Positions 10,700 through 62,045 are shown, numbered from the stretch's first letter. The stretch: DNA of 64,000 bases from Deltaproteobacteria bacterium (GCA_016218825.1 JACRCV010000056.1:160416-224415); one strand, 5' to 3'. Program-made: numbers and translations. The notes: generated by a model from the letters alone, not told the origin.

Positions 10700-10707
10700 G
10701 CGCGCCA

Positions 10708-41501: not shown

Positions 41502-41533
41502 CCGTTACTCTCCGTGGTGCTGCCTGGCAGCGG

Positions 41534-43285
41534 TCACGACTTGGAGGGTGACTTGACCTGCTGCAACAGCCGGAAGAACCGCGATGCCTTGTCAGAGTCG
41601 CTCGCCAACAGCGCGTCCACCAGGCTCGAGGCGCCGCACCTTCTGACGAACTCGTTCTCGAAGCGAATGACGTGCGGGAACAGCTTCTTCAACCACGCCG
41701 CGAGGTCGGTCTCGCCCTTGAGCTTGGTCAGCGCGGCGCGCAGATCGGCCTCCATCTTGCCGGCGTCCGAGTACCGGTGCGCCGGATCCTTCTCCAGGCT
41801 CTTCTCGATGATCGGGAACAGGCTGCGCGGGATCTTCGAGGTCCAGCCGGGACGGTCGATCTTGTCGTTGACGATGGCATAGGCGGTCTGGTCGACGGTG
41901 GCGCGGCGGAACGGGTTGGCGCCGGTGAGCATCGAGATCAAGAGCAGCCCCGCGCCCCAGAGATCGGTCTGCGGCGTCGCCTCCTTGCCGAGGAAGATCT
42001 CCGGCGCCATCCAGAACGGGTTGCCGAGGATGGTGTCCTTGTCCCAGTTGCGGCTGCGGACGTAGCCGGCGAGGCCGAAGTCGACGAGCTTGACGACGCC
42101 GTCGAAGCTCACCAGCACGTTGCCCGGCGTGACGTCGCGGTGCACCAACATCCGGCCGCTGGTGTCGGGTATGTGGGCGCGCGCCAACCCCTTGCAGAGG
42201 TCGGCGATGATGGTCGCGACCACCGTGGGCGGCACGGTCGCGCCGTGGCCGACCACCTCGCTCATGATCTCGGTGAGGCTGCGGCCGTGGACGAACTCCA
42301 GCACCATGAAGAACGAGCCCTCGACCCGCTCGAGATCGAGGACGCGGATGACGTTCGGGTGATCCATGCGCGCCGCGAGCTTGGCCTCGTCCAAGAACAG
42401 CCGGATCATGCGGTCGTCGGTGGACAAGTCGGCGCGCACCTGCTTCACCACCGCGAGGCGGCGGAAGCCCATCGCGCCGTGCTGGCGCACCAGGTGCACC
42501 TCCGCCATCCCGCCTTCGCCGAGCTTACAGACGAACTCGTACTTGTTCGCGAAGCGCTTCTTGGCCTCTTCGACCGTCGCCTTGGCCACCGCCGCCTTCT
42601 GGGCCACCGCCGGCTTCTTGGGCGGCGCCGCCTTCGCCGGTGCGGGGCTGCTCGCCGCCACCGCACGCCCGGGCCGCTGCTTGCTCACCGCGGCGATGAA
42701 CTCGCGGTAGTCCTCTTCGCGCTCGGCGATGTCGATCGGCACGCCGCACTCGGCGCACGACGGGCTCGACGCCAGCCAGCCGTCGAACGAGCCGACCGCG
42801 ATCGAATACCAGGTCGCGCGCCGGCAGGTGCCGCAACGTCCGGGGAATAGGATGCTCGCTACCGTGGCGCCGGAGAGCAGCGCCGGGTCGTCGGCGAAGC
42901 GCCGCAACGCCACCGCCGAGCAGTTCACCAGGCTGGTCGCCACGTTCTGGGTCAGCGAGTCCATTGCCGTCCGCCAGCGCTCGAAGCCGCTGGCGTCGAA
43001 GTGCGCGACCCGCTGCATGTCGATGGTCGCCGACGGGCTGTCGGTCGCGGCCACCTGCCGGCCCGGGAACGTGCCGTCGATGATCCCCGCCAGGCGGATG
43101 TTGGTGTTGTTGCCCTCGACCGACTGCCGCGTGGTCAGCCGGACCCCCGGCACTTCGGGCAGCCAGCTGTCGGGGCGCCGCATGGTGCCGAGCACCGCCG
43201 CCGGCGGCGCCGCCGGGGTCACCGAGCGGACGTACTCGAACAGGATCGAGGGATCGTCGTCGAGCTGCGCGTCGCGGCCGCACAC
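41534..43285 (-). CDS. Hanks-type Ser/Thr protein kinase with N-terminal STAS-like + zinc-ribbon module
   Basis: Complete kinase motifs: GEGGMAEV, AVVKQV, HRDVTPGNVLV, DFGLAG, WMAPE. The N-terminal region is paralogous to the 41028..41501 protein (FDASGFERW...CGTC...CAEC). The annotated 5' end is the first start codon (GTG) after an in-frame TAG, so the true N-terminus is uncertain. Confidence 0.75.
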   Translation of the reverse strand: MCGRDAQLDDDPSILFEYVRSVTPAAPPAAVLGTMRRPDSWLPEVPGVRLTTRQSVEGNNTNIRLAGIIDGTFPGRQVAATDSPSATIDMQRVAHFDASGFERWRTAMDSLTQNVATSLVNCSAVALRRFADDPALLSGATVASILFPGRCGTCRRATWYSIAVGSFDGWLASSPSCAECGVPIDIAEREEDYREFIAAVSKQRPGRAVAASSPAPAKAAPPKKPAVAQKAAVAKATVEEAKKRFANKYEFVCKLGEGGMAEVHLVRQHGAMGFRRLAVVKQVRADLSTDDRMIRLFLDEAKLAARMDHPNVIRVLDLERVEGSFFMVLEFVHGRSLTEIMSEVVGHGATVPPTVVATIIADLCKGLARAHIPDTSGRMLVHRDVTPGNVLVSFDGVVKLVDFGLAGYVRSRNWDKDTILGNPFWMAPEIFLGKEATPQTDLWGAGLLLISMLTGANPFRRATVDQTAYAIVNDKIDRPGWTSKIPRSLFPIIEKSLEKDPAHRYSDAGKMEADLRAALTKLKGETDLAAWLKKLFPHVIRFENEFVRRCGASSLVDALLASDSDKASRFFRLLQQVKSPSKS

Positions 43286-43360
43286 CGCGCACTGCCGGAC
43301 CGGGGCCTCCGGCGCGGCGAACGCCGTGTGGTCGAGCTGCGCGTCGAAGAGGTGCGTGGT

Positions 43361-43363
43361 CTA
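43361..43363 (-). other. In-frame TAG codon separating the STAS fragment from the Ser/Thr kinase ORF
   Basis: The track ORFs 43361..43702 and 41534..43285 share a reading frame (43702 minus 43285 is 417, which is 139 codons). The only interruption between them is this stop. Confidence 0.6.
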
Positions 43364-43702
43364 CTCGCCGCAGGAGTCGCACTGGTAGTACGACCGGAAC
43401 GACAACAGCGAACCGCCGCCGTCGAAGCCGACCACCATGTTGAACTGGTCGCTCATGCGCGGCGAGGCACGGACGAAGAACAGCCCCTCCACCTGCTGGC
43501 GGACGGCGCGCACCGCGTTGATCCAATCGCGGACGCCGACCGACGACAGTTGCTTGATGTGGGCGACGTCGAGGACCAGGAACTTGGCGCCGGCGGGCTG
43601 GAGCACCGCGGCGTCAAACGAGTCATCGAGGCGCCCCGACAGGGCGCGGAGGAGGACCGTACCGTCCTTCAACTCACGCAAGACCCGCATGTTGGCTGCC
43701 AT
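43361..43702 (-). CDS. STAS-like domain fragment ending inside a zinc ribbon; in frame with the downstream kinase (probable 5' part of a disrupted or recoded gene)
   Basis: Paralogous to the 41028..41501 protein. It stops after the first CxxC (YYQCDSCGE-TAG). The next 25 in-frame codons plus the kinase ORF continue the ribbon (..RQCAVCGRDAQLDDD..). Confidence 0.5.
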   Translation of the reverse strand: MAANMRVLRELKDGTVLLRALSGRLDDSFDAAVLQPAGAKFLVLDVAHIKQLSSVGVRDWINAVRAVRQQVEGLFFVRASPRMSDQFNMVVGFDGGGSLLSFRSYYQCDSCGE

Positions 43703-43927
43703 TCGACACAGGAGATATCAACTCGAGGAATTCAGTCAAGCGTTTAGCTCCGGCGACCGCGCCGGCCGATTCGTTGACTGCCTCGAAGCGGCCTGCTACT
43801 GATCGTTAGGTTATCCTTACGCAAACTCATATGGCTCCCAGAACGAATCGCCACGACTGTCCGACCCCAGGGAGTGATCGTCAGCTCCTTGCATCCGCAC
43901 GAAAGGCAGACGAAAGACCGGGGCCTC

Positions 43928-47689: not shown

Positions 47690-48877
47690 ATGAAGCGACG
47701 GGATTTCGTCCTCGGTATGTTGGGGCTCTCTGGGACCTCCCTGGCGCTGACCAAGTGGCTCCTGGCTTCACGCCGGGTCACCCCCGCGGAGTGGCTCGGC
47801 TCGCCCTACCCGCTGGTCAAGGTGCCGGGCGCCGGCGAGATGTATCAACTGTGGGATCGCCCGCCCCTCTACGAAACGCCGGTGTCGAAGCTCGTGGGCA
47901 CGAAGAACCCGCCCTTCACCGACACTGATCACTACTACATTCGTTGGCGGGAGGCCGACCTCAAGCCGCTGGACCCGGATGCCTTCAGGCTCACCATCAC
48001 CGGCGAGGGTGTGCCCAAGCCGGTGACGCTCACGCTCGCCGACATCAAGAACTTCCCCAAGATCGAGCGCGGCGCGGTTGGCATGTGCGGCGCCGCCGGC
48101 TTCGGCCTCATTCGCCCCCGACGACCGGCGCCACCGTTCACCAAGGGCGATCTCTCGTGTGCGCTCTGGGGAGGCGCCAGCTTGCGGGCCATTCTCGAGG
48201 ACGTCGGCGCTCGACCGGAGTTTGGAGTGCTGACCGCCAAGTCGGCGGTGAAGATCATCTCCAACAAGCACCCCACCTACATCAGATCCGTCCGCATGGT
48301 GGACGCCACCGGAGCGAACACCCTGCTGGCCTACGAGATGAACGGCGAGGCGCTGCCCTTCTGGCATGGTGCGCCCCTGCGACTGGTCATCCCCGGGGTC
48401 ATAGGACCGAACTGGGTCAAGCAGCTGGTAGAGCTGGAGGTGCGACGGACCCTGGCGCCCCGAAGTTGGTACCAGAAGGCCACCGGCTTCGGCCCCGATG
48501 TTCCCAAGATGGGCGTCAAGACGTTCTCGCTGGTCCTCTCGCCGCTCGACGGCGAGCGGGTGCCGGTGGGTGCGCCGGTGGACGTCATGGGCATCGCCTT
48601 CGACTCGGGGCAGGGGATCGACCGCGTGGACGTCAGCGCCGACAACGGTTGGAGCTGGCAGGGCGCGGAGCTCGGTCCCCAGCCCGACGCCTACGTGTGG
48701 CGGAAATGGAAGACGTCGTTCACCCCCACGACGGCCGGTCGAATCAACGTCATGTCGCGGGCGACCTCCACGAACGGCGAGACCCAGCCGCTCGACGCCT
48801 GGCCGAACATCCAACACGAAGGCGGGCACCGTAACAACTCGAGCCGGACCTTCGCGACGACGTTCGAGGTCGTGTGA
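47690..48877 (+). CDS. Tat-exported sulfite-oxidase-family molybdopterin oxidoreductase (SorA/YedY-like)
   Basis: Twin-arginine signal (MKRRDFVLG). Molybdopterin-binding Cys region (AVGMCGAAGFG). C-terminal dimerisation domain. GAGGAG ribosome-binding site. Confidence 0.8.
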   Translation: MKRRDFVLGMLGLSGTSLALTKWLLASRRVTPAEWLGSPYPLVKVPGAGEMYQLWDRPPLYETPVSKLVGTKNPPFTDTDHYYIRWREADLKPLDPDAFRLTITGEGVPKPVTLTLADIKNFPKIERGAVGMCGAAGFGLIRPRRPAPPFTKGDLSCALWGGASLRAILEDVGARPEFGVLTAKSAVKIISNKHPTYIRSVRMVDATGANTLLAYEMNGEALPFWHGAPLRLVIPGVIGPNWVKQLVELEVRRTLAPRSWYQKATGFGPDVPKMGVKTFSLVLSPLDGERVPVGAPVDVMGIAFDSGQGIDRVDVSADNGWSWQGAELGPQPDAYVWRKWKTSFTPTTAGRINVMSRATSTNGETQPLDAWPNIQHEGGHRNNSSRTFATTFEVV

Positions 48878-50088
48878 TGGGCGCCCAATCTCCTGCTGCG
48901 CGTCGCCCTCTGGTCGCCGCGGTCCTGGTCGGATCGCTGGGCATCGCCGGGGGATGTCGGGAGTCGGATCGCCCGGTCTCCGGCCCGCCCCCCTACGTCC
49001 GTGAGCTCAAGCCCGGAGAAGGGAAGCTGCATGTGGAGAGCGCGTGCCTGTCGTGCCACAACGCGCGCACCATCATCACCCTGGAGGGCATGACCAAAGA
49101 CTGGTGGCGGTTCGACGTCTGCAAGATGCGCCACACCTTCGGCGCCGAAGTAAGCGACGTCGATACCGCCAAGATCATCAAGTACCTCGAGGACAACTAC
49201 AGCTGGCCGGATCCGGTGGAGGACCGCGAGCGCACCGGGACCGACGTGATCGAGCGTGTGTGTTACCAGACCCCCGAATCGGTGCTCTACCACGCCCCTG
49301 AGGACGTCTATCTGGTCTCGAATATCAACGGCAGCCCGCTCGGCGTCGACGGCGACGGCTTCATCAGCAAGATCGCCGCCGACGGCACCGCCCTCGATCT
49401 CACGTGGATCAGCGGCGAGCGCGAAGGCACGGTCCTCAACGCCCCGAAGGGCATGGCGATCCAGGGTTCGACCCTCTACGTCGCCGACCTCACCGTCGTG
49501 CGCAAGTTCGACCTCCGGACCGGTGGGCCGACGGGCAACATCCCCATTCCCGGAAGCACCTTCCTCAATGACGTTTGTGAGGGGCCGAACGGTAGTGTCT
49601 ACGTCACCGACACCGGGTTGAGCGGAAACACCGAGGGTTTCGTGAACACCCGGACCGACGCGGTGTACCGCATCGAAGCAGACGACCGTTACCGGGCGAT
49701 CGCAACCGGGACCGTCCTCGGGCAACCCAACGGCTGCGTCGCGGTGCCCGGCGGCCTGGTGGTGGTCACCTTTGGGTCAGGAGAGGTCTATCGGCTCGAC
49801 GACGACGGCACCCGCCACCCGATGCCACGACCGCCGCGCGGCGTCCTCGACGGCGTCGTCGCGCTCGGTGACGGCCGCTTGGTGATCTCCAGCTTCGGTG
49901 GCCAGGCGATCTACATCCTCCGCCACGACCAGACCTACGAAGCGCTGGCGCCGCTCGTCGACAACCCCGCCGACATTGCCTGGGACCAGAAACGCGGCCG
50001 CATCGTGGTGCCGCAGTTCATGAAGAGCCGGGTGGTCTACTTCAACCTCGACGGCGCGACCGCTGGAGCGACCCCGACGGGACCGTAG
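48877..50088 (+). CDS. Mono-haem cytochrome c (SorB-like) fused to a beta-propeller (SMP-30/NHL-like) domain; lipoprotein
   Basis: Start overlaps the sorA-like stop (GTGATGG). Lipobox (LGIAGGC). CLSCHN haem-binding site. C-terminal repeated propeller-like blades. Confidence 0.7.
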   Translation: MGAQSPAARRPLVAAVLVGSLGIAGGCRESDRPVSGPPPYVRELKPGEGKLHVESACLSCHNARTIITLEGMTKDWWRFDVCKMRHTFGAEVSDVDTAKIIKYLEDNYSWPDPVEDRERTGTDVIERVCYQTPESVLYHAPEDVYLVSNINGSPLGVDGDGFISKIAADGTALDLTWISGEREGTVLNAPKGMAIQGSTLYVADLTVVRKFDLRTGGPTGNIPIPGSTFLNDVCEGPNGSVYVTDTGLSGNTEGFVNTRTDAVYRIEADDRYRAIATGTVLGQPNGCVAVPGGLVVVTFGSGEVYRLDDDGTRHPMPRPPRGVLDGVVALGDGRLVISSFGGQAIYILRHDQTYEALAPLVDNPADIAWDQKRGRIVVPQFMKSRVVYFNLDGATAGATPTGP

Positions 50089-50090: not shown

Positions 50091-52286
50091 CTACTCCACC
50101 ACATCGACCAAGAGCATGGTCATGTCGTCTTCCTGCGGCGTGTCCTCGGGCCGCAGGCGATCGACTTGATCCATGATGTGCTTCGCGGCGTCCTCGATGC
50201 CCATGCCCGCGGTCTCGAGCAGGAAGGCGCGCAGCGCTCTAATGCCGGTGGCCTTGGTCTTGCGGATCGCCTCGAACTCGTACAACCCGTCGGTGAACAT
50301 GAAGATCCGGGTGCCCGGCAGCTTCGGGATCTCGAGGTGGCCGATCTGGAGCTCGGGCGCCAACGCCAGCGGCGTACCGCGAACCGCCCTGCCCTGCACC
50401 CGCCGGTCCGGGTCCAACACCAGGAGCATCGGCGCGCCGCCGTTCCACCAGTGGATGACGCTCTCGTCGTGCGGCATGTCGAGCAGCGACATCGTCATGT
50501 GGTAGTGACCCTGGGCGGTCACCAGCAGCTCGTCGTGCATCTCTTTGAGCTGCTCTTCGACCGACAGCTCCGGCATCATCCGCCGCAGAATGCGGTAGAC
50601 GCTCTCGGTCGCCGCGGTCACCATCGCCGGCCCCGGGCCGTGGCCGGAGACGTCGCCGACCGCGACCCGCACCGAGCCCTGGTGGTCGTCGAACCACCAC
50701 CAGTCACCGCCGCACTCGTCGGCGGCGCGGCAGAAGCCATGGATGACGAGCCCCTCGGCCCGCATGGTCTTGTGCTTGGGCTGGAACATCTCCTGGACGG
50801 CGGCGATCAGCGCCATGTCCTTCTTGTAGGCGGCCTCGAGGCTCTTCTTGCCGGCCTCGACCAGCTGGGTCATCGCGAGCTTCTCCTGGATGATCGCCTG
50901 CAGCGTGTTCTGCAGATCGTCATAGGAGCGCGCCAGGTTGGTCAGGGTGACGTTGCCGTGGCCCATGAGCTCGCGGTAGGTCACCTGCGGCGGCACCGGC
51001 AGGCCGCAGGTCTTCGCGACCCGCGCGACGCCCTCGGGGATCGCGGTGAACAGCTGCTCGGCGCCGTCGCGAGCGATCCCCAGCAAGTCGCAGGCCTTGA
51101 ACGCCGCTTGCCGGGTTTGCTCGACGTCGCCGGGCTCGAACATCGCCGCGATCCGCTCCACCACCCACGCCACGAGCGCCAGCGGCTCGCCGCCCGGAGG
51201 CTCATCGTCGTGGTGATGCAGAACGGCCTCGACGACGCCGTGTGGCACGTCCCAGTCGGTCGCGAGCTCCATCACCCGGACGCCGTGCTCGACTTCATTC
51301 GCCGCCCGTTCGCGGATCGGGCGCGACTTCGACGGGCTCAGGCCGATCTCCAGCGCCCCGGTCGGGTCGTGCATCGCCCGCGCCAACAGGCCGGCATCCA
51401 TCAGGAAGCCGGCGGCGACCGCGAAGTTCAGGTCGACGTCCCGCACCCAGTTGCACACCAACGACGCGGTGACCGCGCGCCGCAGCACCAGCGGCAACAG
51501 GTACTCGACCGCGGGGTTGGTCTCTTTGACGAGGTCGAGCACCGAGAGCGCCATGGTGACGGCCTCGACGCCGTCGATCCCGAGCTCCTCGATCACCGCG
51601 TCCGGGTCCTTGGTGACGTCGGTCACCGAGAACAACCGGCTCGCGGTCAACGCCCGGAAACGATTCTCGAAAAGCTTGTCACCCTTCACCAGCTGCTTCT
51701 GCTCGTTGAGCTCGGCGGTGTCGTGACGCGCCGGCTCCGCCGCCGCCCCCGGCTTGCGCTTCACCGCGAGGTTGCTGAGCGCGGTGGACAGCGCCGCGAA
51801 GTTGACCGGCTTCGGCAGCATCAGATCGCCGCCCACCGCCTTGAGCTCGTCCTCGGAGTAGCGCGCGCCGTAGCCGGTCACGAAGATGATCGGCAGCTTG
51901 TCGAGCAGCGGCACCGCCTTGGCGTACTTGGGCTTGCGCGCCTCCGGCAACGTGCCGCGCGCCAGCTTCGTGAGCTCGATGCCGTCCATGTGCGAGCCCT
52001 TGAGCTCGATGTCCATCAACACCGCCGCGAGCTCCTTGCCGCTCTCGGCGAGGATGGCGCAGGCCTCCTGGTCGTTCTTCGCCCACTGCATCGCGAAGCG
52101 CCGCTTCAACACCAGCTCGGTGACCTCCCAGTTCTCGGGCACGTCCTCGACGTAGAGGATCCGTTGGCGCTCGGTCTGTGGCAGCGGCGCCGCCAACGCC
52201 CGGCGCGCCCCGGCGCCGGCGACCGACGCCGGATCGCTCGCGTCCGGGGTGCTCTTGCTGACACTCCATTTGTGGAGCTTCTTCAT
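50091..52286 (-). CDS. Response regulator with REC + HDOD-like + PP2C (SpoIIE/RsbU-type) phosphatase domains
   Basis: REC domain (ILYVEDVPEN ... LMDIELKG). PP2C motifs (GGDWWWF ... VGDVSGHGPGPAM ... FTDGLYE). Confidence 0.8.
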   Translation of the reverse strand: MKKLHKWSVSKSTPDASDPASVAGAGARRALAAPLPQTERQRILYVEDVPENWEVTELVLKRRFAMQWAKNDQEACAILAESGKELAAVLMDIELKGSHMDGIELTKLARGTLPEARKPKYAKAVPLLDKLPIIFVTGYGARYSEDELKAVGGDLMLPKPVNFAALSTALSNLAVKRKPGAAAEPARHDTAELNEQKQLVKGDKLFENRFRALTASRLFSVTDVTKDPDAVIEELGIDGVEAVTMALSVLDLVKETNPAVEYLLPLVLRRAVTASLVCNWVRDVDLNFAVAAGFLMDAGLLARAMHDPTGALEIGLSPSKSRPIRERAANEVEHGVRVMELATDWDVPHGVVEAVLHHHDDEPPGGEPLALVAWVVERIAAMFEPGDVEQTRQAAFKACDLLGIARDGAEQLFTAIPEGVARVAKTCGLPVPPQVTYRELMGHGNVTLTNLARSYDDLQNTLQAIIQEKLAMTQLVEAGKKSLEAAYKKDMALIAAVQEMFQPKHKTMRAEGLVIHGFCRAADECGGDWWWFDDHQGSVRVAVGDVSGHGPGPAMVTAATESVYRILRRMMPELSVEEQLKEMHDELLVTAQGHYHMTMSLLDMPHDESVIHWWNGGAPMLLVLDPDRRVQGRAVRGTPLALAPELQIGHLEIPKLPGTRIFMFTDGLYEFEAIRKTKATGIRALRAFLLETAGMGIEDAAKHIMDQVDRLRPEDTPQEDDMTMLLVDVVE

Positions 52287-52345
52287 TTATGCTCCCGGCG
52301 CCCCGCCAAGGTATCGCGAGGCTCTCGCCTGCTCCGCTGGAGTCG

Positions 52346-53347
52346 TCACATCTCGGGACCGCGCGGCGCCTCGAGCTGTTCGCGACGCTCGAACTCCTGC
52401 ACCACGCGCTGGTAGGCCGAGTCCTCCTGCATGCACAAGGCGCTGTAGGCCACGGTCCAGTTGTGCATGAAATACTTCAGGTCGGCGGCCAGATCCGCGC
52501 GCAGCTCGGCGAGCGTCGGGCTCTCGAACTCGACGCCGACGCCGGCGCGCACCTTGCGCATGCCGGTGTTGCGCGGCGGATCACCGAAGAACGCCCGCCA
52601 GCTGCGCTTGACGGCCGACCCGAAGCCGGTCCCAGGCTCCTGACCCCGGACCTCGATCTCGTAGGGCATGACGTACTCGGTGGCCTGCAGCCCCGAGCCT
52701 TGATCGTTCCGGAACACGCCGCGCTCCCGCCCCTGCTCGTGCGCCTGCTTCAGCGCCGCGCGGAACCGCGCCGAGCCGCCGACGTCGGTGTCGACGTTCG
52801 GGAAGAACTCCATCCGGACTCCCGCCCGCGCCGCGAGCGCCGCCATGCTCTTGTTCATCACCGCCGCCAAGTCCTGGGTGGTGGAGACCTTCTGCAGACA
52901 GACCGCGAAGCCCTCCATCTGCCGTCCCAAGGCGATCAGCATCTCGATGTCCAGAGACGCCCGCAGCCCGGCGCGCACCAAGGTGTGGAGGCGATCCGGC
53001 GTCGCCTCCGACTTGGCGAGGTAGTAGTCGATGTCGTAGTCGTTGAGGATCTTCTCTTCCGGCGCGACGCCCGGCTGCCCGGTGCGCAACACCAGGCGCA
53101 GTGACCGGTCGCAGTGGGCGCGGATGTGGCGACACAGATCGAGACCGGCGTGATCCGTCTCCATCACCACGTCGATGAACGCGACGTTGAAGCTCTTGGT
53201 GGCCAGGATCTGTTGCGCTTCTTTGCCGCTCGCGGCGCTGGTGATCGTGAACTTCTTCTGCCGCCAGCTGCGGTGCTTGAGCGCCAGCTGCGTGATCTGG
53301 TGCACGTCCGGTTCGTCGTCAACTACGAGGATCTGCCAGTTTTCCAT
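52346..53347 (-). CDS. Response-regulator-like protein: N-terminal REC + uncharacterised ~200-aa domain (no output kinase)
   Basis: REC domain (NWQILVVDDEPD ... FIDVVMETDHAGLDLC). The C-terminal domain is paralogous to the middle domain of the next gene (..YFMHNWTVAYSALCMQE..). Start ATG at 53347. Confidence 0.7.
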   Translation of the reverse strand: MENWQILVVDDEPDVHQITQLALKHRSWRQKKFTITSAASGKEAQQILATKSFNVAFIDVVMETDHAGLDLCRHIRAHCDRSLRLVLRTGQPGVAPEEKILNDYDIDYYLAKSEATPDRLHTLVRAGLRASLDIEMLIALGRQMEGFAVCLQKVSTTQDLAAVMNKSMAALAARAGVRMEFFPNVDTDVGGSARFRAALKQAHEQGRERGVFRNDQGSGLQATEYVMPYEIEVRGQEPGTGFGSAVKRSWRAFFGDPPRNTGMRKVRAGVGVEFESPTLAELRADLAADLKYFMHNWTVAYSALCMQEDSAYQRVVQEFERREQLEAPRGPEM

Positions 53348-53360
53348 GGTCGCTCCAAAG

Positions 53361-55127
53361 CTACTTCCGCAAGCTGAGGGCCGTCGGCTGCACACTCGCG
53401 CCTTGCACGGGTGCGGTCTTCGGCAGCAGGAGGGTGAACGTTGCCCCTTGTCCCGGTTTGCTGTCAACCCTGATCGAACCGCCCAGGAGATTGGTCACGA
53501 TGTTGTGCGAGATCGCCAGCCCGAGCCCGGTGCCGCCCTTGTTGCGCCCCGAGGTGACGAAGGGCTCGAACATGCGCGGCATCATCTCGGCCGCGATCCC
53601 CTTGCCGAAGTCGCGGTACACCAGCTTCAGCATCGGGCCCTTGTCGCCGTTGGCGTTGCTGAGCGTGATCTCGATCTTGCCGCCGCTCTGGCCCTCGTCG
53701 TAGCCGTAGCGACAGGTGTTCTGGATGAAGTTCACCAGCACCTGCGACAAGTGGCCAGGGTAACCATCCCACTCGAGGTTCGCGTTCGGCTCCTCCACCA
53801 CCGTCGCCTGGATGCTCTGCTTCTTGAGCACCGGCCCCATGGTGTCGACGCAGGTCCGTGCGACCTCGCCGATCGGCGCCAGCACCCGATGATCGGAGAG
53901 CTGCGACGCCGAGAGCTGCTTGAAGTTCTTGATCAGGTCCTGGGCGCGCACCAGGTTCTTGGTGAGCAGATCGGCCGATGACGTCAGGTCCGCGGCCATC
54001 TCCTTGCGCTGCGTCGGGTCGACGTTCTCCCCGGCCAGCTGCTGGGCGAGGTCGACCACCATCGCCCGCGCGGTGTTCGCGACCCCGAGGGGGGTGTTCA
54101 TCTCGTGCGCCACCCCGGTGACCATCGTCGCGATGCTCTGCATGCGCTCGAAGTACATCTGCTCGCGCAACATCCGTTCCTTGGCCAGACGCTCTTGAAG
54201 CCGCAACGTCGAATACGCGATGCGCCAGTTCTCGATGAACAGCCGGGCGTCGGAGGAGAAGTCGTTGATCGCCTTCTCCGAGAAGTACTCCGGCACGATC
54301 TCGGCGTAGAGACCGCCGTTGCCCACCGTGACCTCGCCGGCCTGCCCCTCTTCCTTGCCGGGCTCCTCGACCTTGGTGCAGAACAACTGCACCAAGCTGT
54401 TGTTGGGAAATCCCACCGCCGGGCCGCGGCTGAGGCTGATGTCGGCACCGGGCTTCGCGGTTTCGTGCAGGCCCTTGAGCTTGGCCTGGACTGTGTGAGA
54501 TTCGACCGACGTCTTGCCGGAAAACTGGATCGGGATCGGCGTGTCTACCGAGAGGTCGTAGTAGAACAGGCTCGAGGCGTTGTGCTTCAAGTCCAAGAAC
54601 GCGATGCCCTCGCGCATGAACACCAGCAGATCTTCGAGCGAGGTCACGCGCTGCAGCGCGCGGGTGAAGCTCTGCAGCTGGCGGCCGAACGCCAGCAGCG
54701 TCGAGATGTCCTCGGAGCTGCGCAGGCACGAGCGGATGACCGAGTACAGCTTCTCGGGCGAGGCGTCGGTCTTCTCCATATAGAAGTCGATGTCGTAGTT
54801 GTTGAGCACGGCCTCCTCCGGCGCCATGCCCGGCTGGCCGGTGCGCAACACGATGCGGGCCGACGGCGGACAGTTGCTGCGAATGTACTGACAGAGCTCG
54901 AGGCCGGCGGTGTCGGTCTCCATCACGACGTCGACGATCGCCACCCGGTACTGCGCCGGGTTCTTGCTGATGATCGCCTTGCCTTCCTTCAGGCTCTTGG
55001 CGTGCGCGATCTCGAAGCCCTTCTTCTTCCACTTCTTGCGTCGCAGCGCGAGCTCGGTGACGTTGTGAACGTCTTCCTCGTCGTCGACGACGATCAGCTG
55101 CCAGTTCTGGCCTTCATCCATTGTCAA
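53361..55127 (-). CDS. Hybrid sensor kinase: N-terminal REC + uncharacterised domain + HisKA/HATPase
   Basis: REC domain (NWQLIVVDDEED ... IVDVVMETDTAGLELC). H-box (VTGVAHEMNTPLGV). HATPase N/G boxes (NFIQNTCRYG, GTGLGLAIS). The first ATG is 2 codons inside the track ORF. Confidence 0.8.
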   Translation of the reverse strand: MTMDEGQNWQLIVVDDEEDVHNVTELALRRKKWKKKGFEIAHAKSLKEGKAIISKNPAQYRVAIVDVVMETDTAGLELCQYIRSNCPPSARIVLRTGQPGMAPEEAVLNNYDIDFYMEKTDASPEKLYSVIRSCLRSSEDISTLLAFGRQLQSFTRALQRVTSLEDLLVFMREGIAFLDLKHNASSLFYYDLSVDTPIPIQFSGKTSVESHTVQAKLKGLHETAKPGADISLSRGPAVGFPNNSLVQLFCTKVEEPGKEEGQAGEVTVGNGGLYAEIVPEYFSEKAINDFSSDARLFIENWRIAYSTLRLQERLAKERMLREQMYFERMQSIATMVTGVAHEMNTPLGVANTARAMVVDLAQQLAGENVDPTQRKEMAADLTSSADLLTKNLVRAQDLIKNFKQLSASQLSDHRVLAPIGEVARTCVDTMGPVLKKQSIQATVVEEPNANLEWDGYPGHLSQVLVNFIQNTCRYGYDEGQSGGKIEITLSNANGDKGPMLKLVYRDFGKGIAAEMMPRMFEPFVTSGRNKGGTGLGLAISHNIVTNLLGGSIRVDSKPGQGATFTLLLPKTAPVQGASVQPTALSLRK

Positions 55128-55201: not shown

Positions 55202-56410
55202 TCAAGACCGGAGTGGAGCCGATCCTTTGCGCCGCCGTGCCGCCAACCGGGCCGTCAACACCAGGCACAAAACACAGGGAACCAGCAACACCCCGTTCAG
55301 GAGCTCGAAGCCCAACGCCTCGAACATGCCGGCGGTGGTGAGCACCGCGGCGGCCGACACCCCGAAGGCGACGGAGTCGAAGAAGCCCTGAGCCCGCCCC
55401 CGTTCCGCGGCGGTGTGGGTCTCGACGAGGAGGCGCGACGACGCCAAGAAGAGAATGCTCCACCCCACCCCGATCAGGATCATGCCCACCCAGAGGACGG
55501 CGATCGACGCCCCCATGAGCAGCACCACGAGGGCGGCGGTGAGGAGCCCGGCGCCGACGACCATCATCCTCAAGATCCCGAAGCGTTGGAGAAGCGCGCC
55601 GGTCACGAACGACGGCGCGAACATCGCGAACATCCGCCACATCACTATAAAGGAGATGTCTTTGAAGGGAAATCCGAGCTTCTTCATCGCCAGCGACCCG
55701 CCGATCATCGGCACCTGCAGCACGAGCCACGAGACCGCGCCGCCCACGGCGGCGACGACGTAAGCCTCCTGCCTGACGATCACTCCCAGCGGCCGACCGC
55801 CCGCCTTTCCCTCTTCGCTGCCGGCAGCGGGAATGCGCAACCCCCCCAAGAGCGGGATGGTGAGGGCGGTACACACGGCGGTGGCGGCGTAGCAGCCGCT
55901 GTACATGATGGGGTCGAAGGTAGCCCGCGTGAGGTTGGCGAGCGCCGAGCCGGCAAAAGGGGCCACGACCCCTCCGGCCAGAACCAAGGACATCGCCTTG
56001 CTCTTGAACAGCGGCTTCGCGGCGTCCACGGCGGCAAAACGGTACTTCTGCGCGAACGCCAGATAGGTCCCCACCGTCGCGTTGCCCAGCATCAGCACCG
56101 CGAAGCTCCGCCAGAAGATCGCGCCCGCGATCAGCGCCGCTCCGAGGGTGCCGATGGCGGCCCCGGTCATGAAGCCGCGCCGTCGGCCGAGCCGCTGCAT
56201 CAGGTTCGAGGCCGGCATCGAGGTGAAGGCGTTGAACAGCACCGTGAGGCCGTTCGGGATCGTGGCCAGCCAGACCGCCGGCGCCAGCTCGACGCCGACC
56301 AGCGGTCCGGTGCTCCACATGACGGTGTTGCTCGTCATCATGATCGCTTGGCAGAGCGCGAGCACGAGAACGTTGCGCTTCTGGTGCTGGAAGATGTCGC
56401 TCGGTTGCAT
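55202..56410 (-). CDS. MFS transporter
   Basis: 402 aa with about 12 TM helices and a conserved MFS loop motif (RLGRRRGF). Confidence 0.75.
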   Translation of the reverse strand: MQPSDIFQHQKRNVLVLALCQAIMMTSNTVMWSTGPLVGVELAPAVWLATIPNGLTVLFNAFTSMPASNLMQRLGRRRGFMTGAAIGTLGAALIAGAIFWRSFAVLMLGNATVGTYLAFAQKYRFAAVDAAKPLFKSKAMSLVLAGGVVAPFAGSALANLTRATFDPIMYSGCYAATAVCTALTIPLLGGLRIPAAGSEEGKAGGRPLGVIVRQEAYVVAAVGGAVSWLVLQVPMIGGSLAMKKLGFPFKDISFIVMWRMFAMFAPSFVTGALLQRFGILRMMVVGAGLLTAALVVLLMGASIAVLWVGMILIGVGWSILFLASSRLLVETHTAAERGRAQGFFDSVAFGVSAAAVLTTAGMFEALGFELLNGVLLVPCVLCLVLTARLAARRRKGSAPLRS

Positions 56411-56619: not shown

Positions 56620-58611
56620 ATGGCCCATGTCCGATACCAACTGAGTGCCCTCCTGATTTTGCTGAATCTCTACGCCTGCGTCCTGGTGACGCCCGACCAG
56701 GTGCAGCCCGGGCCAACCCCGGACGCGCCGACCGTCATCATCTTGAAGAGCAGCGACAACAGCCTGTTCGACGGACCGGTCAAGGAGTTCCTCGGCGCGA
56801 CCGCGGCGCAGGTGGTCGTGTTCACCGTGGCGGCGGCGCCGAAGGACGAGCTGGTCACCGAGATCCGGTTCCGCAAGCCGGCGTTGCTCTTCACCCTCGG
56901 CACGCCCGCGACCCTGCTCGCCAAGGAGAACTTCCCCGACGTCCCGGTCATCTTCGCGATGGTCGTCGACCACTCGCGCTTGAAGCTCGACGCCGCGAAG
57001 AACGTCGCCGGCATCTCCCTCGAACCGCCGGCCACCAGCGAGTTCACCCAGTTCAAGATGGTGTTGCCCGAGGTGAAGCGGGTGGTCGCGTTCCACACCC
57101 CGAGCTCGGCGCAGATGGCGACCACCGCGAAGGAGCAGCTCACCGGCATGGGCATCGAGCTGGTCGCGGTCGCGGTCGCGTCCCCGGCCGAGGTCGGCCG
57201 CGCCTACACCGACAACGTCAAGCCCGGCGACACGGTGTGGCAGCTCAACGATCCGGTGCTGACCACCCAGGAGACCTTTGAATACCTGAAGAACCAGACC
57301 AAGGCGTCGCGGCTGCCGTTCCTGTCGTCGCTCTCCGAAGACTTCGCCGCCGCCGGGGCGCTGATGGCGGTCTCGGTCGATCTGACCTCGCTCGGCGCCC
57401 AGGCCGCCGACATGGCGCGCCGGCTCCTCGACAAGTCGAAGGCCCCGGCCGATCTCGGGGTGCAGCCGCCGATCGGCGCCTACCTGGCGCTCAACCTCGA
57501 CGTCGCCCAGGACATCGGCCTGCACATCGACGACACCGCGCTGCAGTTCGTCAACAAGCTGCTCGCCAAGACCGCGCCGGTAGCAGTGGCCGCGGCGCCC
57601 GGAGAGAAGCCGGCGGAGATCGCCGCGGTGGCGGAGGTCAAGCCCGAGGAGAAGCCCGCCGAGGTCAAGCCCGCGGAGGTCAAGCCGGAAGAGAAGCCGG
57701 CCGAGGAGAAGCCGGCCGAGGTCAAGCCCGAGGAGAAGCCGACGAAGGGCAAGAAGAAGGGCAAGAAGGGCAAGGAGGTCGCCGCCAAGGTCGAGGAGAA
57801 GCCGGCGGAGACCAAGGTGGTCGAGGCCAAGCCGGAGCCCAAGCCGGAGCCCAAGCCGGAGCCCAAGCCGGAGCCGCGGAAGGCCCGCAAGGGCGGCGGG
57901 GTCGTGGCGTTCTACGATCCGGACGCCAACCTGCGCGAGATTCTGAAAATCACCGCGTGGTTCACCGACTTCCTGCACACCATCGATCCGGAGCTCAAGC
58001 TGCAGCCGGTGTCCAACGCCGCGGCGCTCGAGAACCTGGTGTCGAATCAGAAGGTGGAGTTCGCGGTGGTCTCGGCGAAGTACTTGAGCGGCAAGTCGAA
58101 GAAGCTCAAGCTCACGCCGCTGCTCGTGCCGTCGGCGAACGGCGACACCTTCTACCGCACCATCCTCGTGGTGGCTGACGAGAAGCGGGGCAAGAACCTC
58201 GCGGGCGCCAGCATCGGCGCCACCGTGGTCGGCGGCGACACCGCCTCGGTCCTGAAGATCCTCGGCGGCGCCGGCATCAACACCAAGGGCGCGATGATCA
58301 TCCCGGTCTCCAAGGACATCGACGCGCTGATGGCGCTGACGATGGGACAGGTGGACGCGGCGCTGGTGACGCCCTCCAGCCTCGACGTCTTGAAGACCAT
58401 CAACCCGGCGGCGGTCGCGTCGCTGAAGAAGGCCGCCGAGACTCAGCCGGTGCTGCGGGCGCCGTTCTGCGCCGTCGGCGAGAAGGGCAGCGACGTCGGT
58501 GACGTCACCCGCGCGATGCAAGCCATGGCCTCGCACGCGGCCGGGCGCCGCGCGATGAAGACCCTCGGCTTCGACAAGTGGGTGCCGTACAGCCCGGCGA
58601 TGTCGAAGTAG
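56620..58611 (+). CDS. Periplasmic double substrate-binding lipoprotein: ABC_sub_bind-like domain + KPE-repeat linker + PhnD/SsuA-like domain
   Basis: Lipobox (LLNLYACV). N-terminal domain with FTLGTP / YTDN motifs. About 100 aa of (E/K)KPAEVKPE and KPEP repeats. The second domain resembles phosphonate-type binding proteins. Confidence 0.65.
   Translation: MAHVRYQLSALLILLNLYACVLVTPDQVQPGPTPDAPTVIILKSSDNSLFDGPVKEFLGATAAQVVVFTVAAAPKDELVTEIRFRKPALLFTLGTPATLLAKENFPDVPVIFAMVVDHSRLKLDAAKNVAGISLEPPATSEFTQFKMVLPEVKRVVAFHTPSSAQMATTAKEQLTGMGIELVAVAVASPAEVGRAYTDNVKPGDTVWQLNDPVLTTQETFEYLKNQTKASRLPFLSSLSEDFAAAGALMAVSVDLTSLGAQAADMARRLLDKSKAPADLGVQPPIGAYLALNLDVAQDIGLHIDDTALQFVNKLLAKTAPVAVAAAPGEKPAEIAAVAEVKPEEKPAEVKPAEVKPEEKPAEEKPAEVKPEEKPTKGKKKGKKGKEVAAKVEEKPAETKVVEAKPEPKPEPKPEPKPEPRKARKGGGVVAFYDPDANLREILKITAWFTDFLHTIDPELKLQPVSNAAALENLVSNQKVEFAVVSAKYLSGKSKKLKLTPLLVPSANGDTFYRTILVVADEKRGKNLAGASIGATVVGGDTASVLKILGGAGINTKGAMIIPVSKDIDALMALTMGQVDAALVTPSSLDVLKTINPAAVASLKKAAETQPVLRAPFCAVGEKGSDVGDVTRAMQAMASHAAGRRAMKTLGFDKWVPYSPAMSK
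57829..57876 (+). repeat. Four tandem copies of the 12-bp unit AAGCCGGAGCCC (last copy has one substitution), encoding (KPEP)n
   Basis: Direct reading of the sequence. Sits within a longer imperfect GAGAAGCCGGCCGAGGTCAAGCCCGAG-type repeat tract (about 57600..57880). Confidence 0.8.
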
Positions 58612-58647: not shown

Positions 58648-60342
58648 ATGAGCCTTCGCACCCAGATCCTGGTCCTGTTGGTGGTCCTGGTCGCCGCCGG
58701 CGTCGCGTTGACCGGCGGCACGTTGGTGACATGGTTCCGGACCGATCTCAACAACGAGATCGAGGCGACGGCGAGGACGCTGCGCGAGGAGTTGGTCGCC
58801 AAGGGCACCGCGGTCGCGCTCAACGCCGCGCTCGCCTCCGAGGCGGCGATCGAAGGCACCGACTTCGTCTTCCTCACCGAGATCCTGAGCTCGACGGTCA
58901 CGAACGATCCGGAGATCGCGTACGCCTTCATCGCCAACAAGACCGGCCGCATCGCGGTGCACTCGGATCCCGCGAAGGCCGGCTCGAACGCCGAGGGCGG
59001 GCTGCAGAAAGAGGCGTTGGCGAAGAACAAGACCATCAGCGGCGCGGCGCAAATCAACGGCCAGCCCGGCCTCGAGGTCGCGGCGCCGGTGAACGTCGGT
59101 GGCTTCCCCTGGGGGACCCTGCACCTCGGTATTCAGCTCAAGGCGTTGAATCAGGCGATCGAGACCGCGACCGTCGCCACCCGCGCCCGCGTGGTTCGCG
59201 GCACCACCGCGGTCGGCATCGCGGCGCTCGTGGTGCTGGTGGCGGTGCTGGTCGTCGGCGTGTTTCTCTCCAAGCGCACGACGCGGCCGCTCGGCGTCCT
59301 TCTGGCCGGCATCGCGAAGATCCGCGCCGGCAGCCTCGAGCACGTGGTGCGCCTGGGCGGCAGCCGGGAGTTCGTGGCGCTCGGCATGGCGGTCAACGAG
59401 CTCTCCAACGAGCTCCGGGTGCGCACCAAGAAGGTGCAGCAGAACGTCACCAAGCTGCACGAGGCCTTGAGCGGCCTGAAGACCGCGACCCGCCAGCGTG
59501 AGGAGTTTCTGGCCAACGTCTCCCACGAGCTACGAACGCCGTTGAACGCCATCCTCGCGGTGCCGCATCACCTGGTCGAGGATTTCCAGCAGGGGCCGGT
59601 GTTGCACTGCAAGAAGTGCGACAACTACTTCCAGACCGATCGTGCCGAGGCCTCCGGCACCCAGCTGTGCCCTGACTGCAAGGTGCCGGTCGCGACCGAG
59701 ATCCGGTTGTTGTTCGTCGGCAACGCCAACGACCACGTCCACTTCATCCAGCGGCTGAAGACCTCGACCGCGACGATGCGCACCATCGTTCGCTCGCTCG
59801 TGGACTTCTCGAGGCTCGGCGGCCAGGGGGCGCAGCTGCAGCGCAAGAAGGTCGACGTCCGCACGCTGATCGACACGGTGCGCGGCGCGATCGTCGATCT
59901 GGCGAAGCCGGCCGACATCCGCACCTACTTCCCGAAGCTCGTCCTGCCGCTGGTGCTGGACGTCGACGACACGATGTTGTCGCAGATCCTCTTGAACCTC
60001 CTCGGCAACGCGGTGAAGTTCACGCCGGCGGGCGGCGCGGTGAGCTTCGAGGTGGAGCCCAAGGTCGACCAGGGCCGCAAGGTCGTCGAGTTCCGGGTGA
60101 CCGACACCGGCGTCGGCTTGGAGAAGAACCAGCTCGAGGCGGTGTTCAAAGACTTCTATCAGGTGGACAGCGGCCACACCCGCGCCAAGGGCGGCACCGG
60201 CTTGGGGCTCTCGATCGCCAAGCGCATGGTCGAGCTGCACGGCGGACGGATCTGGGCCGACAGCGCCGGCCTGAACCAGGGGACGACGTTTGCCTTTCGT
60301 CTGCCGGCCGAGGCCGGCGGCTCGACAGCGAGTGGATCATGA
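58648..60342 (+). CDS. Membrane sensor histidine kinase (periplasmic sensor + HAMP + HisKA with zinc-ribbon insertion + HATPase)
   Basis: Two TM helices. H-box (VSHELRTPLNAIL) is followed by a 60-aa insert containing HCKKC-x20-CPDC. N/G boxes ([25 protein letters not shown]). Confidence 0.8.
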   Translation: MSLRTQILVLLVVLVAAGVALTGGTLVTWFRTDLNNEIEATARTLREELVAKGTAVALNAALASEAAIEGTDFVFLTEILSSTVTNDPEIAYAFIANKTGRIAVHSDPAKAGSNAEGGLQKEALAKNKTISGAAQINGQPGLEVAAPVNVGGFPWGTLHLGIQLKALNQAIETATVATRARVVRGTTAVGIAALVVLVAVLVVGVFLSKRTTRPLGVLLAGIAKIRAGSLEHVVRLGGSREFVALGMAVNELSNELRVRTKKVQQNVTKLHEALSGLKTATRQREEFLANVSHELRTPLNAILAVPHHLVEDFQQGPVLHCKKCDNYFQTDRAEASGTQLCPDCKVPVATEIRLLFVGNANDHVHFIQRLKTSTATMRTIVRSLVDFSRLGGQGAQLQRKKVDVRTLIDTVRGAIVDLAKPADIRTYFPKLVLPLVLDVDDTMLSQILLNLLGNAVKFTPAGGAVSFEVEPKVDQGRKVVEFRVTDTGVGLEKNQLEAVFKDFYQVDSGHTRAKGGTGLGLSIAKRMVELHGGRIWADSAGLNQGTTFAFRLPAEAGGSTASGS

Positions 60343-62045
60343 AACGGGCGCGCAGGCAGTTCCGACTCGGGTTGCGCGGGCGATTGGGCCTGACGATCTT
60401 CGTCTTGGTGGGCGCGGCGGCGAGCCTCCTCACCCAGTACTTCGTCCGCATGCACACCGTGGCGCTGCGCGAGGTCGCGACCCAGCGCTCGAAGGCGGTG
60501 CGCCAGAGCCTCGAGGATCGCGCCGAAGCGCTGGCGCGAAATGGTGCGATCAGCTCGGCGCCGGCGGCGGTGATGATGGACTTCACGCTCTTGCAGCGCG
60601 CGGTGTCGGCGACGGTGCAGGCGGACTCCGACATCGCCTACGGTCTGATCACCGACGGCCAGAACAAGATCGTGGTCCACAGCGACAAGAAGAAGGTCGG
60701 GCAGACCGCGGCGGCGGCCGACGCCAAAGGCGGCAAGGGCGACCAACCGGTGGTGCGGGAGCTGAAGGTGGACGGCAAGGGCGTCGTCGAGGTCAGCGCC
60801 CCGATCAAGGTCGGCGACGAGCGCTGGGGGACGGTGCGCTACGGGCTGTCGTTGCTGTCGGTGGACCAGCAGCTCGCGGCCACCGAGAAGCACCTGCGCG
60901 CGGTGCGCGCCAAGACCACGCGCTACAGCCTGTTCGCGACCTTGGTGGTGATGTTCATCGCGCTCGTGGTCACCACGATCACCACCAACCGGATGACGCG
61001 CACCGTGCGGGTGCTCGAGGAGGGCATGCGCGCGGTGCTCGCCGGGCGCCGCGAGACCCGGGTGAAGATCACCAAGCCGGTGGAGATCAAGCAGCTCGCC
61101 GAAGGCTTCGGGGCGATGCTCGAGACCATCGAGGAGCGGGACAAGGCGCTGCTCGCGGACGAAGTTCGGGCCGACGTCGCGGTCGAGCAGGCCAAGAGGA
61201 CCGACAAGACCAAGGAGAACCTGGTCTCGCGCTTCACCCAGGACATGCTGCAGCCCATCGATCAGATCGCCAAGCTCTCCGAGGCGATGCAGAAGGCGTT
61301 CACGGCGACCAACGCCCTGGTGTGCCCGAAGTGCCAGGAGAGCTACGAGGCGCCGCCGCCGGGACAGCCGGTCGGCAATTGTCCGACCTGCAAGGTGGCG
61401 CTCGCGCCCTCCGAGGTCGTGGTGCTCACCGACGACCCCGGTGCGCAACGCGGCCGCCTGCAGGAGGTGACCGGCGTCGCCACCAACCTCCTGGCGCTCA
61501 TCAACGGCGTCCTCGATCTGGCCAAGGTCGACGCGCAGAGCAAGCAACTGGAGGGGAGCGCCCCGGTGAAGCTCGCCGACCTCGCGGTCGGGGCCAAGAA
61601 GTACGTCGACGGCGTCTGCGACGACGCCGAGCGGGTGTTCTGGCCGATGCTCACCCAGCCGCTGAGCGTCGAGGGTGACGCCGCCCGCCTGCAGCAGGCG
61701 TTCGGGATGGTCGCCGAGCTCGTGGTGCGCCTGACGGCCCGCGGCCGCGGCACGGTGCGGGTCGAGGTCGACACCTGTGCGTTCCGCGGTGCTCCCGGCG
61801 TGCAGATCGTCTTCCGCGAGGAGGGCCCCGGGCTCACCCCGGAGGTGCTGGAGTCGATCGACGGCGGCCGGACGCCCGACATTCGCGCGACGATGGCGGT
61901 GCTCTTGGTCCGCCAGGTGACCGAGCTCCATCACGGCGAGTTCTCGCTGCAGAGCGAGGTCGGGCGGGGCATGAGCGCGCGTCTGGTGTTGCCGCAGCGG
62001 CAGCAGACGACAGGTGCCGCCCGAGCCGCGAGCGCGCCCGCGTAG
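60339..62045 (+). CDS. Paralogous sensor kinase-like protein lacking the phospho-acceptor His (probable pseudo-HK), with the same zinc-ribbon insertion
   Basis: 4-bp overlap with the upstream histidine kinase. Same layout. The H-box position reads LVSRFTQDMLQPI (no His). Insert is CPKC-x17-CPTC. Degenerate HATPase boxes. Confidence 0.7.
   Translation: MKRARRQFRLGLRGRLGLTIFVLVGAAASLLTQYFVRMHTVALREVATQRSKAVRQSLEDRAEALARNGAISSAPAAVMMDFTLLQRAVSATVQADSDIAYGLITDGQNKIVVHSDKKKVGQTAAAADAKGGKGDQPVVRELKVDGKGVVEVSAPIKVGDERWGTVRYGLSLLSVDQQLAATEKHLRAVRAKTTRYSLFATLVVMFIALVVTTITTNRMTRTVRVLEEGMRAVLAGRRETRVKITKPVEIKQLAEGFGAMLETIEERDKALLADEVRADVAVEQAKRTDKTKENLVSRFTQDMLQPIDQIAKLSEAMQKAFTATNALVCPKCQESYEAPPPGQPVGNCPTCKVALAPSEVVVLTDDPGAQRGRLQEVTGVATNLLALINGVLDLAKVDAQSKQLEGSAPVKLADLAVGAKKYVDGVCDDAERVFWPMLTQPLSVEGDAARLQQAFGMVAELVVRLTARGRGTVRVEVDTCAFRGAPGVQIVFREEGPGLTPEVLESIDGGRTPDIRATMAVLLVRQVTELHHGEFSLQSEVGRGMSARLVLPQRQQTTGAARAASAPA

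Follow-up and report, generated by a model that had tools for sequence, protein, structure and literature searches.

What do three consecutive genes, each encoding a protein with a receiver (REC) domain at its N terminus, do together, and what is the domain of about 200 residues that two of the proteins share? The genes are located on the minus strand at positions 50,091 to 55,127 of a 64,000-nucleotide stretch of DNA from a Deltaproteobacteria bacterium (JACRCV010000056.1:160416-224415; to be referred to as the window), and 'downstream' is used here for the direction of lower coordinates. The locus combines what is probably a Myxococcota-restricted branch of the REC-DUF3369 proteins, in one kinase-fused and one standalone form, with a rare REC-HDOD-PP2C protein and a sensor made of a solute-binding protein (SBP), a kinase and a pseudokinase. 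It is an uncharacterized variant of known signaling schemes (RsbK/RsbY-like and RpfY-like), and nothing categorically new. In our reading of the sequences, the shared domain (domain X) is probably a distant side branch of DUF3369, confined to one lineage and somewhat reduced, and does not represent a new fold class.

The first gene encodes a cytoplasmic hybrid kinase of 586 residues (REC-X-HK, 53361..55121), the second a kinase-less paralogue of 333 residues (REC-X, 52346..53347), and the third a protein of 731 residues in which a REC domain is followed by an HDOD domain, a coiled coil and a SpoIIE-type PP2C phosphatase domain (50091..52286). The G+C content of the window is about 68-70%, and both a gene map based on third-position GC and the list of open reading frames show three consecutive minus-strand genes, with which the public gene calls on the identical contig agree. 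An operon-like arrangement of three co-directional frames had been proposed from the sequence alone (the original prediction), and the gene positions, the spacing and this arrangement are borne out. There are 13 bp between the stop of REC-X-HK and the start of REC-X, and 59 bp between the stop of REC-X and the start of the PP2C gene, all three genes are on the same strand, and no terminator-like hairpin was found on the minus strand inside the three-gene block. A GGGAG ribosome-binding site precedes the ATG of the PP2C gene. A promoter scan gave no sigma-70-like sites, as expected at such GC content and in this phylum, and the Rfam and tRNA scans of the window were both empty. The kinase gene had been placed at 53361..55127; its stop and its architecture hold, but 55127 is an upstream TTG, and the ATG at 55121 is the likelier start, giving 586 residues as in the public gene call.

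The architectures proposed earlier for the three proteins agree with Pfam and with the alignments, and for the kinase also with an AlphaFold2 (AF2) model. In REC-X-HK, Pfam finds Response_reg at residues 10-117, HisKA at 332-404 and HATPase_c at 455-569. All features of the three genes are on the minus strand; those of the kinase are the receiver (54738..55106, with the acceptor Asp within VDVVME, 54918..54935), domain X (54162..54737), the DHp domain (53898..54161, with the H-box VAHEMNTPLG at 54084..54113) and the catalytic ATPase domain (53406..53897). The boxes VAHEMNTPLG, NFIQN, DFGKGI, FEPFVT and GGTGLGLAI are those of a HisKA-type kinase. Asp13, Asp14, Asp64, Thr94 and Lys117 are invariant, and His339 and the N-, G1-, F- and G2-boxes are conserved, in an alignment of 33 kinase-type sequences.

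For REC-X, Pfam finds Response_reg at residues 6-124 and nothing else. The receiver (52973..53347) has its acceptor Asp within IDVVME (53159..53176), and Asp10, Asp11, Asp59, Thr89 and Lys112 are invariant in a family alignment of 22 sequences. Domain X (52349..52972) closes with a helix of about 47 residues, which contains FMHNWTVAYSAL (52436..52471) and stops where the H-box would start. The close paralogy of REC-X and REC-X-HK suggested previously is confirmed by 36% identity over 340 residues (E = 3e-70), an alignment that spans the receiver, the region X of about 200 residues and the following helix, and the motifs quoted for the pair (NWQ[LI][IL]VVDDE.DVH, DVVMETD.AGL[ED]LC and F[IM][EH]NW.[IV]AYS[TA]L..QE) are all found. 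In a neighbor-joining tree, one kinase-fused clade lies apart from several standalone clades, and the window's REC-X belongs to the standalone clade P0002-P0010. The two forms thus appear to have parted long ago, without any recent duplication. Since their clades are old and distinct and the acceptor residues are kept, REC-X can be ruled out as a recent tandem duplicate or a decaying kinase fragment.

In the third protein, Response_reg is found at residues 43-170, HDOD (PF08668) at 192-360, with 36.2 bits against a cutoff of 22.9, and SpoIIE/PP2C (PF07228) at 536-729, with 100.4 bits against a cutoff of 25. Its receiver is located at 51777..52160 (acceptor Asp within LMDIEL, 52002..52019), the HDOD domain at 51207..51713, and the PP2C domain, with the motifs GGDWWWF, GDVSGHG, FTDGL and EDDMT, at 50100..50681. 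The alignment for this protein has six rows, namely the window protein, four PP2C orthologues, and P0193, in which GGDEF replaces PP2C. Glu47/Asp48, Asp92, Thr137 and Lys159 of the receiver are invariant, and the metal-binding motifs GGD, GDVSGHG, TDG and DD are kept in the five PP2C orthologues (including that of the window). From these residues, all three proteins look active and phosphorylatable.

A search of the Protein Data Bank (PDB) with the PP2C protein as a single sequence gave no match, and a profile search with its family found the PP2C domains of Rv1364c (3ke6) and SiaA (6k4e) and the HDOD domain of MmoQ (3p3q/3ljx). MmoQ, from Methylococcus capsulatus, also has a receiver followed by HDOD (E = 1e-5 in the profile search). 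Unlike in MmoQ, the REC-HDOD unit here bears an enzymatic output, either PP2C in the window or GGDEF in P0193 (L091:10001-11899), a paralogue with REC, HDOD and coiled coil and 39% identity.

Domain X had been described as shared and unrecognized. The first part stands: the domain is present in both proteins, and Pfam gives no match to it even at E ≤ 10, nor does NCBIfam give any. The second part needs revision, since the domain probably has a remote relative in DUF3369, the GAF-like domain of REC-DUF3369-HD-GYP (RpfY) regulators and of some kinases (bioRxiv 10.1101/2021.11.05.467447). With hhalign, X (79 sequences) aligns to DUF3369 (20 sequences) with a probability of 90.4% and E = 1.4e-6 over 152 columns, nearly the whole domain. 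When the shared linker helix is left out, the probability is 63% and E = 6.8e-5, and the reversed control has E = 0.66. With X alone, BLAST gives weak matches (E = 0.015 at best, against L019). Full-length REC-X is colinear with L003 (Pseudoalteromonas) and L019 (Pelomonas) up to the end of DUF3369. Its distant matches include hundreds of REC-DUF3369-HD-GYP proteins with the same receiver subtype (VDVVME and LRTGQPG), and these alignments extend 60-70 residues past the receiver into X. Moreover, the two domains have the same position, right after the DVVME/LRTGQPG receiver and before the output, with DUF3369 starting at residues 144-156 or so and X at about 126-130. Proteins with the order REC-DUF3369-HisKA-HATPase and a genuine DUF3369 occur (L074 and L021), and L068 is a REC-GAF-HK protein with the same kinase core as REC-X-HK. 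Therefore, the architecture of REC-X-HK is already known.

An exhaustive search of 1.84 billion representative sequences with a HMMER profile of X found 87 clusters at 50% identity, 76 of them at E ≤ 1e-10. Nearly all are REC-X (about 330 residues) or REC-X-HK (about 560 residues), and the nine clusters that were scanned include the rare forms REC-X-HK-REC and GAF-X-HK. No PF11849 was found in these nine, and the precomputed Pfam annotations of REC-X family members consist of PF00072 alone. For the loci whose source organism was seen, the family is in Myxococcota.

In the AF2 model of X alone (pLDDT 90.8, pTM 0.81), two helices are followed by a three-stranded sheet packed with helices, the three strands being the only long ones, and then by the C-terminal helix of about 47 residues. 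A Foldseek search of the PDB with this model ranks mostly GAF-clan structures at the top (6oap, SpoIISA, the LasR ligand-binding domain, 3p01, CodY and the PDE5 GAF domain), with TM scores of just 0.3-0.45.

Several of these results weigh against a relationship between X and DUF3369. The Foldseek search found nothing in the PDB at E ≤ 1e-3, the best match having E = 0.07 and the TM scores being those just given. PF11849, the Pfam model of DUF3369, gives no match at E ≤ 10 to either X domain of the window or to P0014, P0071 and P0080. This model and the X profile do not detect each other's families, and with no DUF3369 recognized in the nine clusters scanned, homology at the level of HMMER is rejected. 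The relationship is visible to profile-profile methods only.

The comparison with the RpfY family (for example V. cholerae VCA0210 and D. vulgaris DVU0722; bioRxiv 10.1101/2021.11.05.467447) follows the same lines. Both have the DVVME acceptor motif, LRTGQPG after β4, and a receiver followed directly by an α/β domain of roughly 170-200 residues that closes in a long helix, and the kinases adjacent to RpfY-family genes share the core subfamily of REC-X-HK. On the other hand, X is missed by PF11849, its middle part having diverged and carrying an insertion, and all the forms seen were REC-X, REC-X-HK or rare variants of these, none combined with HD-GYP or GGDEF. With this assignment, a domain missed by the current Pfam models can be named (DUF3369-like, GAF-like) and its family delimited. 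The original prediction was to be given up if X were a known domain and the gene set not conserved as a unit; X is probably related to DUF3369, and the set is conserved.

The set is conserved in the nearest relatives, although the real unit is bigger than three genes. The loci compared here (L081/82, L084/85/86 and L090) are the genomic contexts of clade P0002-P0010. In all of them REC-X is directly followed by the REC-HDOD-PP2C gene, with which it overlaps in L084 and L090. Wherever the sequence extends upstream (L081-L085 and L090), REC-X is directly preceded by a gene for a protein of about 650 residues with ABC_sub_bind and Phosphonate-bd domains, and wherever it extends downstream (L081, L084/85 and L090), two sCache-HAMP kinase genes in tandem are oriented convergently to the operon. 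REC-X-HK adjoins the SBP gene in L084/85 and L090. Among the matches listed, the PP2C orthologues (four beyond that of the window) are all on contigs carrying REC-X family genes. Conservation of the three genes is thus limited to their place in this larger module, in a few uncultured myxobacteria, and the firmest pair is REC-X and PP2C, not REC-X-HK and REC-X. The window has the same parts in another arrangement, with the genes for the SBP and the two membrane kinases (HK-A and HK-B) divergent from those for an MFS transporter, REC-X-HK, REC-X and PP2C. Taken together, this defines a signaling module of six to eight genes in uncultured myxobacteria.

Other combinations are found further away in the family. 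In one distant locus REC-X is present three times, along with REC-X-HK and a HAMP-SpoIIE protein, another has REC-X and REC-X-HK amid Hanks kinases and PP2Cs, and Sorangium has a 292-residue REC protein plus REC-X-HK.

The sensor genes are on the plus strand. The SBP (56620..58611) is a lipoprotein with the lipobox LYAC, and its two different SBP-like domains (ABC_sub_bind and Phosphonate-bd in Pfam) are joined by a low-complexity linker of about 100 residues rich in PEKPAEVK (about 57604..57891). HK-A (58648..60342) is a sCache-HAMP-HisKA-HATPase membrane kinase with a normal H-box (VSHELRTPLN, 59518..59547), as expected of an active kinase, and has orthologues in L081, L084/85 and L090. HK-B (60339..62045), the start of which overlaps the stop of HK-A by 4 bases, also has sCache and HAMP domains. 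It has Gln at the position of the phospho-acceptor His (FTQDMLQPID, 61233..61262), together with degenerate ATPase boxes. The His-to-Gln change is kept in the orthologues of L084 and L090, and by its sequence HK-B is a conserved pseudokinase, always in tandem with HK-A. Both proteins have a CxxC..CxxC insert resembling a Zn ribbon between the DHp helices (59605..59682 in HK-A and 61320..61394 in HK-B), and no earlier account of this kind of insert is known to us. A seven-transmembrane kinase that otherwise differs from the two (L091:7274-9901) shares the insert, and its gene adjoins that of the REC-HDOD-GGDEF protein.

A gene for a TonB-dependent receptor, without counterpart in the window, lies between the PP2C and pseudokinase genes in L081 (13164-15407) and L090 (12164-14467). 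Another (L082:7340-9583) comes after the PP2C gene of L082, a contig that stops short of the kinase genes. The receptor hints at an imported solute as the sensed ligand. In addition, membrane proteins with two sCache-HAMP units and no kinase or other output are encoded at L088:2260-4008, L001:10999-12798 and L090:3310-5085, each gene adjoining a standalone REC-X paralogue of a clade other than the window's.

How could these parts be connected? We tentatively favor two two-component wires that would converge on the receiver-controlled PP2C, a model that as a whole has somewhat less than an even chance of being correct. It starts from what is observed, namely the domain content, the intact residues, the synteny, the remote similarity of X to DUF3369, and the associations between kinase cores and receiver types. 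In wire 1, the periplasmic lipoprotein would report an extracytoplasmic ligand to the HK-A/HK-B membrane pair, and HK-A would phosphorylate the receiver of REC-HDOD-PP2C. In wire 2, the soluble REC-X-HK would be controlled by the phosphorylation state of the receiver at its N terminus, with domain X relaying the change in the receiver through a continuous helix into the DHp domain. The cores of REC-X-HK and of a third kinase, REC-HK3, would then phosphorylate DUF3369-type receivers, above all REC-X. At the point of convergence, REC-X would most likely modulate PP2C by protein-protein contact, its gene being directly in front of that of PP2C. The output would be the dephosphorylation of a phospho-Ser/Thr protein; analogy suggests a STAS-type switch protein, the gene of which would be located elsewhere.

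For wire 2, a scan of genome collections found at least 78 loci with REC-DUF3369-type (RpfY-type) genes in many phyla, and two X-family loci among the matches listed. In 36 of the 78 listed RpfY-type loci, a neighboring kinase has a DHp and catalytic core that is 29-41% identical to that of REC-X-HK (E ≤ 1e-28). In the same 78 loci, the best values for other window kinases are 6e-16 (a PAS histidine kinase, see below) and 5e-8 (HK-A), and HK-B has no match at E ≤ 1e-5. The core subfamily of REC-X-HK is thus a regular companion of DUF3369-type receivers, and this suggests that REC-X-HK targets REC-X and the receiver that it carries itself. REC-HK3 (62075..~63415, minus strand) is a REC-HisKA-HATPase protein according to Pfam, with a canonical receiver and without domain X. 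Its core is 41% identical to that of REC-X-HK (E = 5e-66), and it is specific to the window's own neighborhood; its start codon is uncertain, the reading frame running upstream through an Arg/Pro-rich, probably non-coding stretch. In L035, a kinase like REC-HK3 is encoded directly upstream of a receiver of the DUF3369-protein type. Finally, in the AF2 model of full-length REC-X-HK (pLDDT 82) residues 282-362 form one unbroken helix that leads from X straight into α1 of the DHp domain and past His339, as expected of a transmitter domain.

This helix also bears on another role for REC-X, that of a decoy paralogue, which would heterodimerize with REC-X-HK through X and the long helix and poison or re-tune the kinase, without being a conventional response regulator. 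REC-X aligns with the kinase until just before the H-box, the X helix of about 47 residues is in the kinase continuous with the dimeric DHp domain, and the conserved residues of X (Gln18, Leu35, Leu46, Phe168, Asn171 and Trp172) are located in helices and not in a pocket, all of which would suit such a role. However, the standalone proteins and the kinase-fused ones belong to distinct clades of old origin, many standalone REC-X genes have no adjacent REC-X-HK (L001 and L088), and the tightest and most conserved partner of the window's REC-X clade is the PP2C gene. We consider a decoy function unlikely.

For wire 1, the L091 neighborhood points to HK-A as the probable donor for the PP2C receiver. 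The DHp and catalytic core of the seven-transmembrane kinase there, which bears the Zn-ribbon-like insert, is 33% identical to that of HK-A (E = 5e-49). Next to the kinase gene are those for the REC-HDOD-GGDEF protein and for a lone REC domain, which match the corresponding regions of the PP2C protein with 39% and 51% identity, respectively.

HK-A could also be the single input of a branched system, phosphorylating REC-X-HK, REC-X and REC-HDOD-PP2C in parallel. REC-X would then be a phosphate sink or competitor that tunes the flux, and the REC-X-HK core would serve a regulator elsewhere. HK-A, HK-B and the SBP are conserved along with all the other components, the SBP gene is directly upstream of REC-X in four loci, REC-X paralogues of clade B adjoin sCache-HAMP membrane proteins, and the acceptor Asp is kept in every REC-X. 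The REC-X-type and PP2C receivers are different receiver types, however, and with the REC-X-HK core subfamily neighboring DUF3369-type receivers in 36 of the 78 listed loci, REC-X is its obvious local target. This possibility is therefore rather doubtful, though worth keeping in mind.

The scheme of two converging wires has its own difficulties. We infer who phosphorylates whom, the action of REC-X on PP2C and the phosphatase substrate, and the partners are assigned from gene neighborhoods. Wire 1 draws on one independent locus (L091) plus synteny. In L081, REC-X-HK is located elsewhere on the contig, so that its adjacency is not constant. Lastly, no RsbV/RsbW/sigma factor set was found in the scanned window proteins or within 10 kb in L081, L084 and L090. 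These points all weigh against it.

The original prediction had suggested a phosphorelay instead, feeding a PP2C that might act on the STAS proteins of a module upstream in the window. There is no HPt domain in any window protein scanned with Pfam, and a strict His-Asp-His-Asp phosphorelay is rejected on this basis; a branched multi-kinase two-component network fits better. The proposed target module (41028..43717, minus strand) comprises three paralogous STAS-like domains with sub-threshold matches to STAS_2 (E about 1e-3), and a Zn-ribbon-like motif comes after each of them. The STAS-like domains are found in a protein of 118 residues, at the N terminus of a Hanks-type Ser/Thr kinase (41534..43360), and in a protein of 158 residues, and the gene for the PAS histidine kinase comes after them. 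It is unusual for a STAS domain to be fused with a Hanks kinase.

STAS proteins are the usual targets of SpoIIE-type PP2Cs such as RsbU, RsbP, RsbY and RsfR (PMC10950880), and the three STAS-like domains of the window retain a Ser at the usual phospho-site position. Homologous STAS-like/Zn-ribbon genes adjoin the REC-X/sCache-HAMP pair in L001 (12849-13988), and in L090 (18869-21937) they are about 1 kb or less away from HK-A. Against this target, besides the missing HPt domain, stand the STAS matches below the Pfam thresholds, the kinase of Hanks type rather than RsbW type, and the distance of 6.4 kb from the PP2C gene, past unrelated metabolic genes of opposite orientation. Moreover, neither L081 nor L084 showed STAS-like/Zn-ribbon genes up to a distance of 10 kb. 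The link is circumstantial: a connection of PP2C to these genes is possible but weakly supported, and the phosphorelay model with this target is improbable. Even less probable is a hybrid circuit, in which the HDOD-PP2C protein would dephosphorylate the STAS-like/Zn-ribbon domains, both wires would set a STAS switch controlling the eukaryote-like kinase and not a sigma factor, and REC-X would be a phosphorylation-dependent adaptor on the phosphatase.

The more general idea behind the original prediction, a PP2C output that converts a two-component signal into a Ser/Thr step, follows a known principle, and the PP2C is intact, but a partner-switching set was not found. In RsbK/RsbY of Bacillus cereus and RsfS/RsfR of Mycobacterium smegmatis, kinase-driven REC-PP2C regulators dephosphorylate STAS antagonists (PMC10950880, PMC4574943). 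The window protein has the same N-terminal receiver and SpoIIE/RsbU-type PP2C with intact metal-binding motifs as both. As there, a sensor kinase is encoded beside the phosphatase, and a kinase-borne receiver would be an internal regulator, like the REC domain of RsbK. In comparison with both systems, HDOD and a coiled coil are placed between REC and PP2C. There are further differences: the sensors are sCache domains and a solute-binding lipoprotein, not CHASE3; no RsbV, RsbW or sigma factor is encoded near the window genes; and REC-X, REC-X-HK and the pseudokinase are extra.

Multi-kinase networks with pseudokinase partners exist, for example GacS/RetS. They likewise bring several kinases and receivers together, with one kinase-like protein lacking the phospho-acceptor His. 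There is no sequence relationship, however, and HK-A and HK-B are tandem paralogues with a shared Zn-ribbon-like insert in DHp. If the two converging wires are correct, the locus would be a further case of a two-component signal turned into Ser/Thr dephosphorylation, one that adds a phylum and additional layers to the known cases, and it would provide a concrete context for the functional study of HDOD and DUF3369-type domains.

Several other genes of the window are located near the module or apart from it. The MFS transporter gene (55202..56410, minus strand) precedes REC-X-HK by 80 bp in the same orientation and may be co-transcribed with it; it is not conserved in the related loci. On the other side, genes for a sulfite-oxidase-like molybdopterin oxidoreductase and a protein of 404 residues with a weak haem-binding match (47690..50088, plus strand) end 2 bp from the PP2C stop in convergent orientation, a pair that is not conserved beside the module in other loci. 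At a greater distance, a DEAD/Helicase_C/MZB helicase (MrfA-type Zn-binding) is followed by a protein of the RNase_H_2 superfamily (6920..11332, minus strand), which we take to resemble the MrfAB DNA-repair pair.

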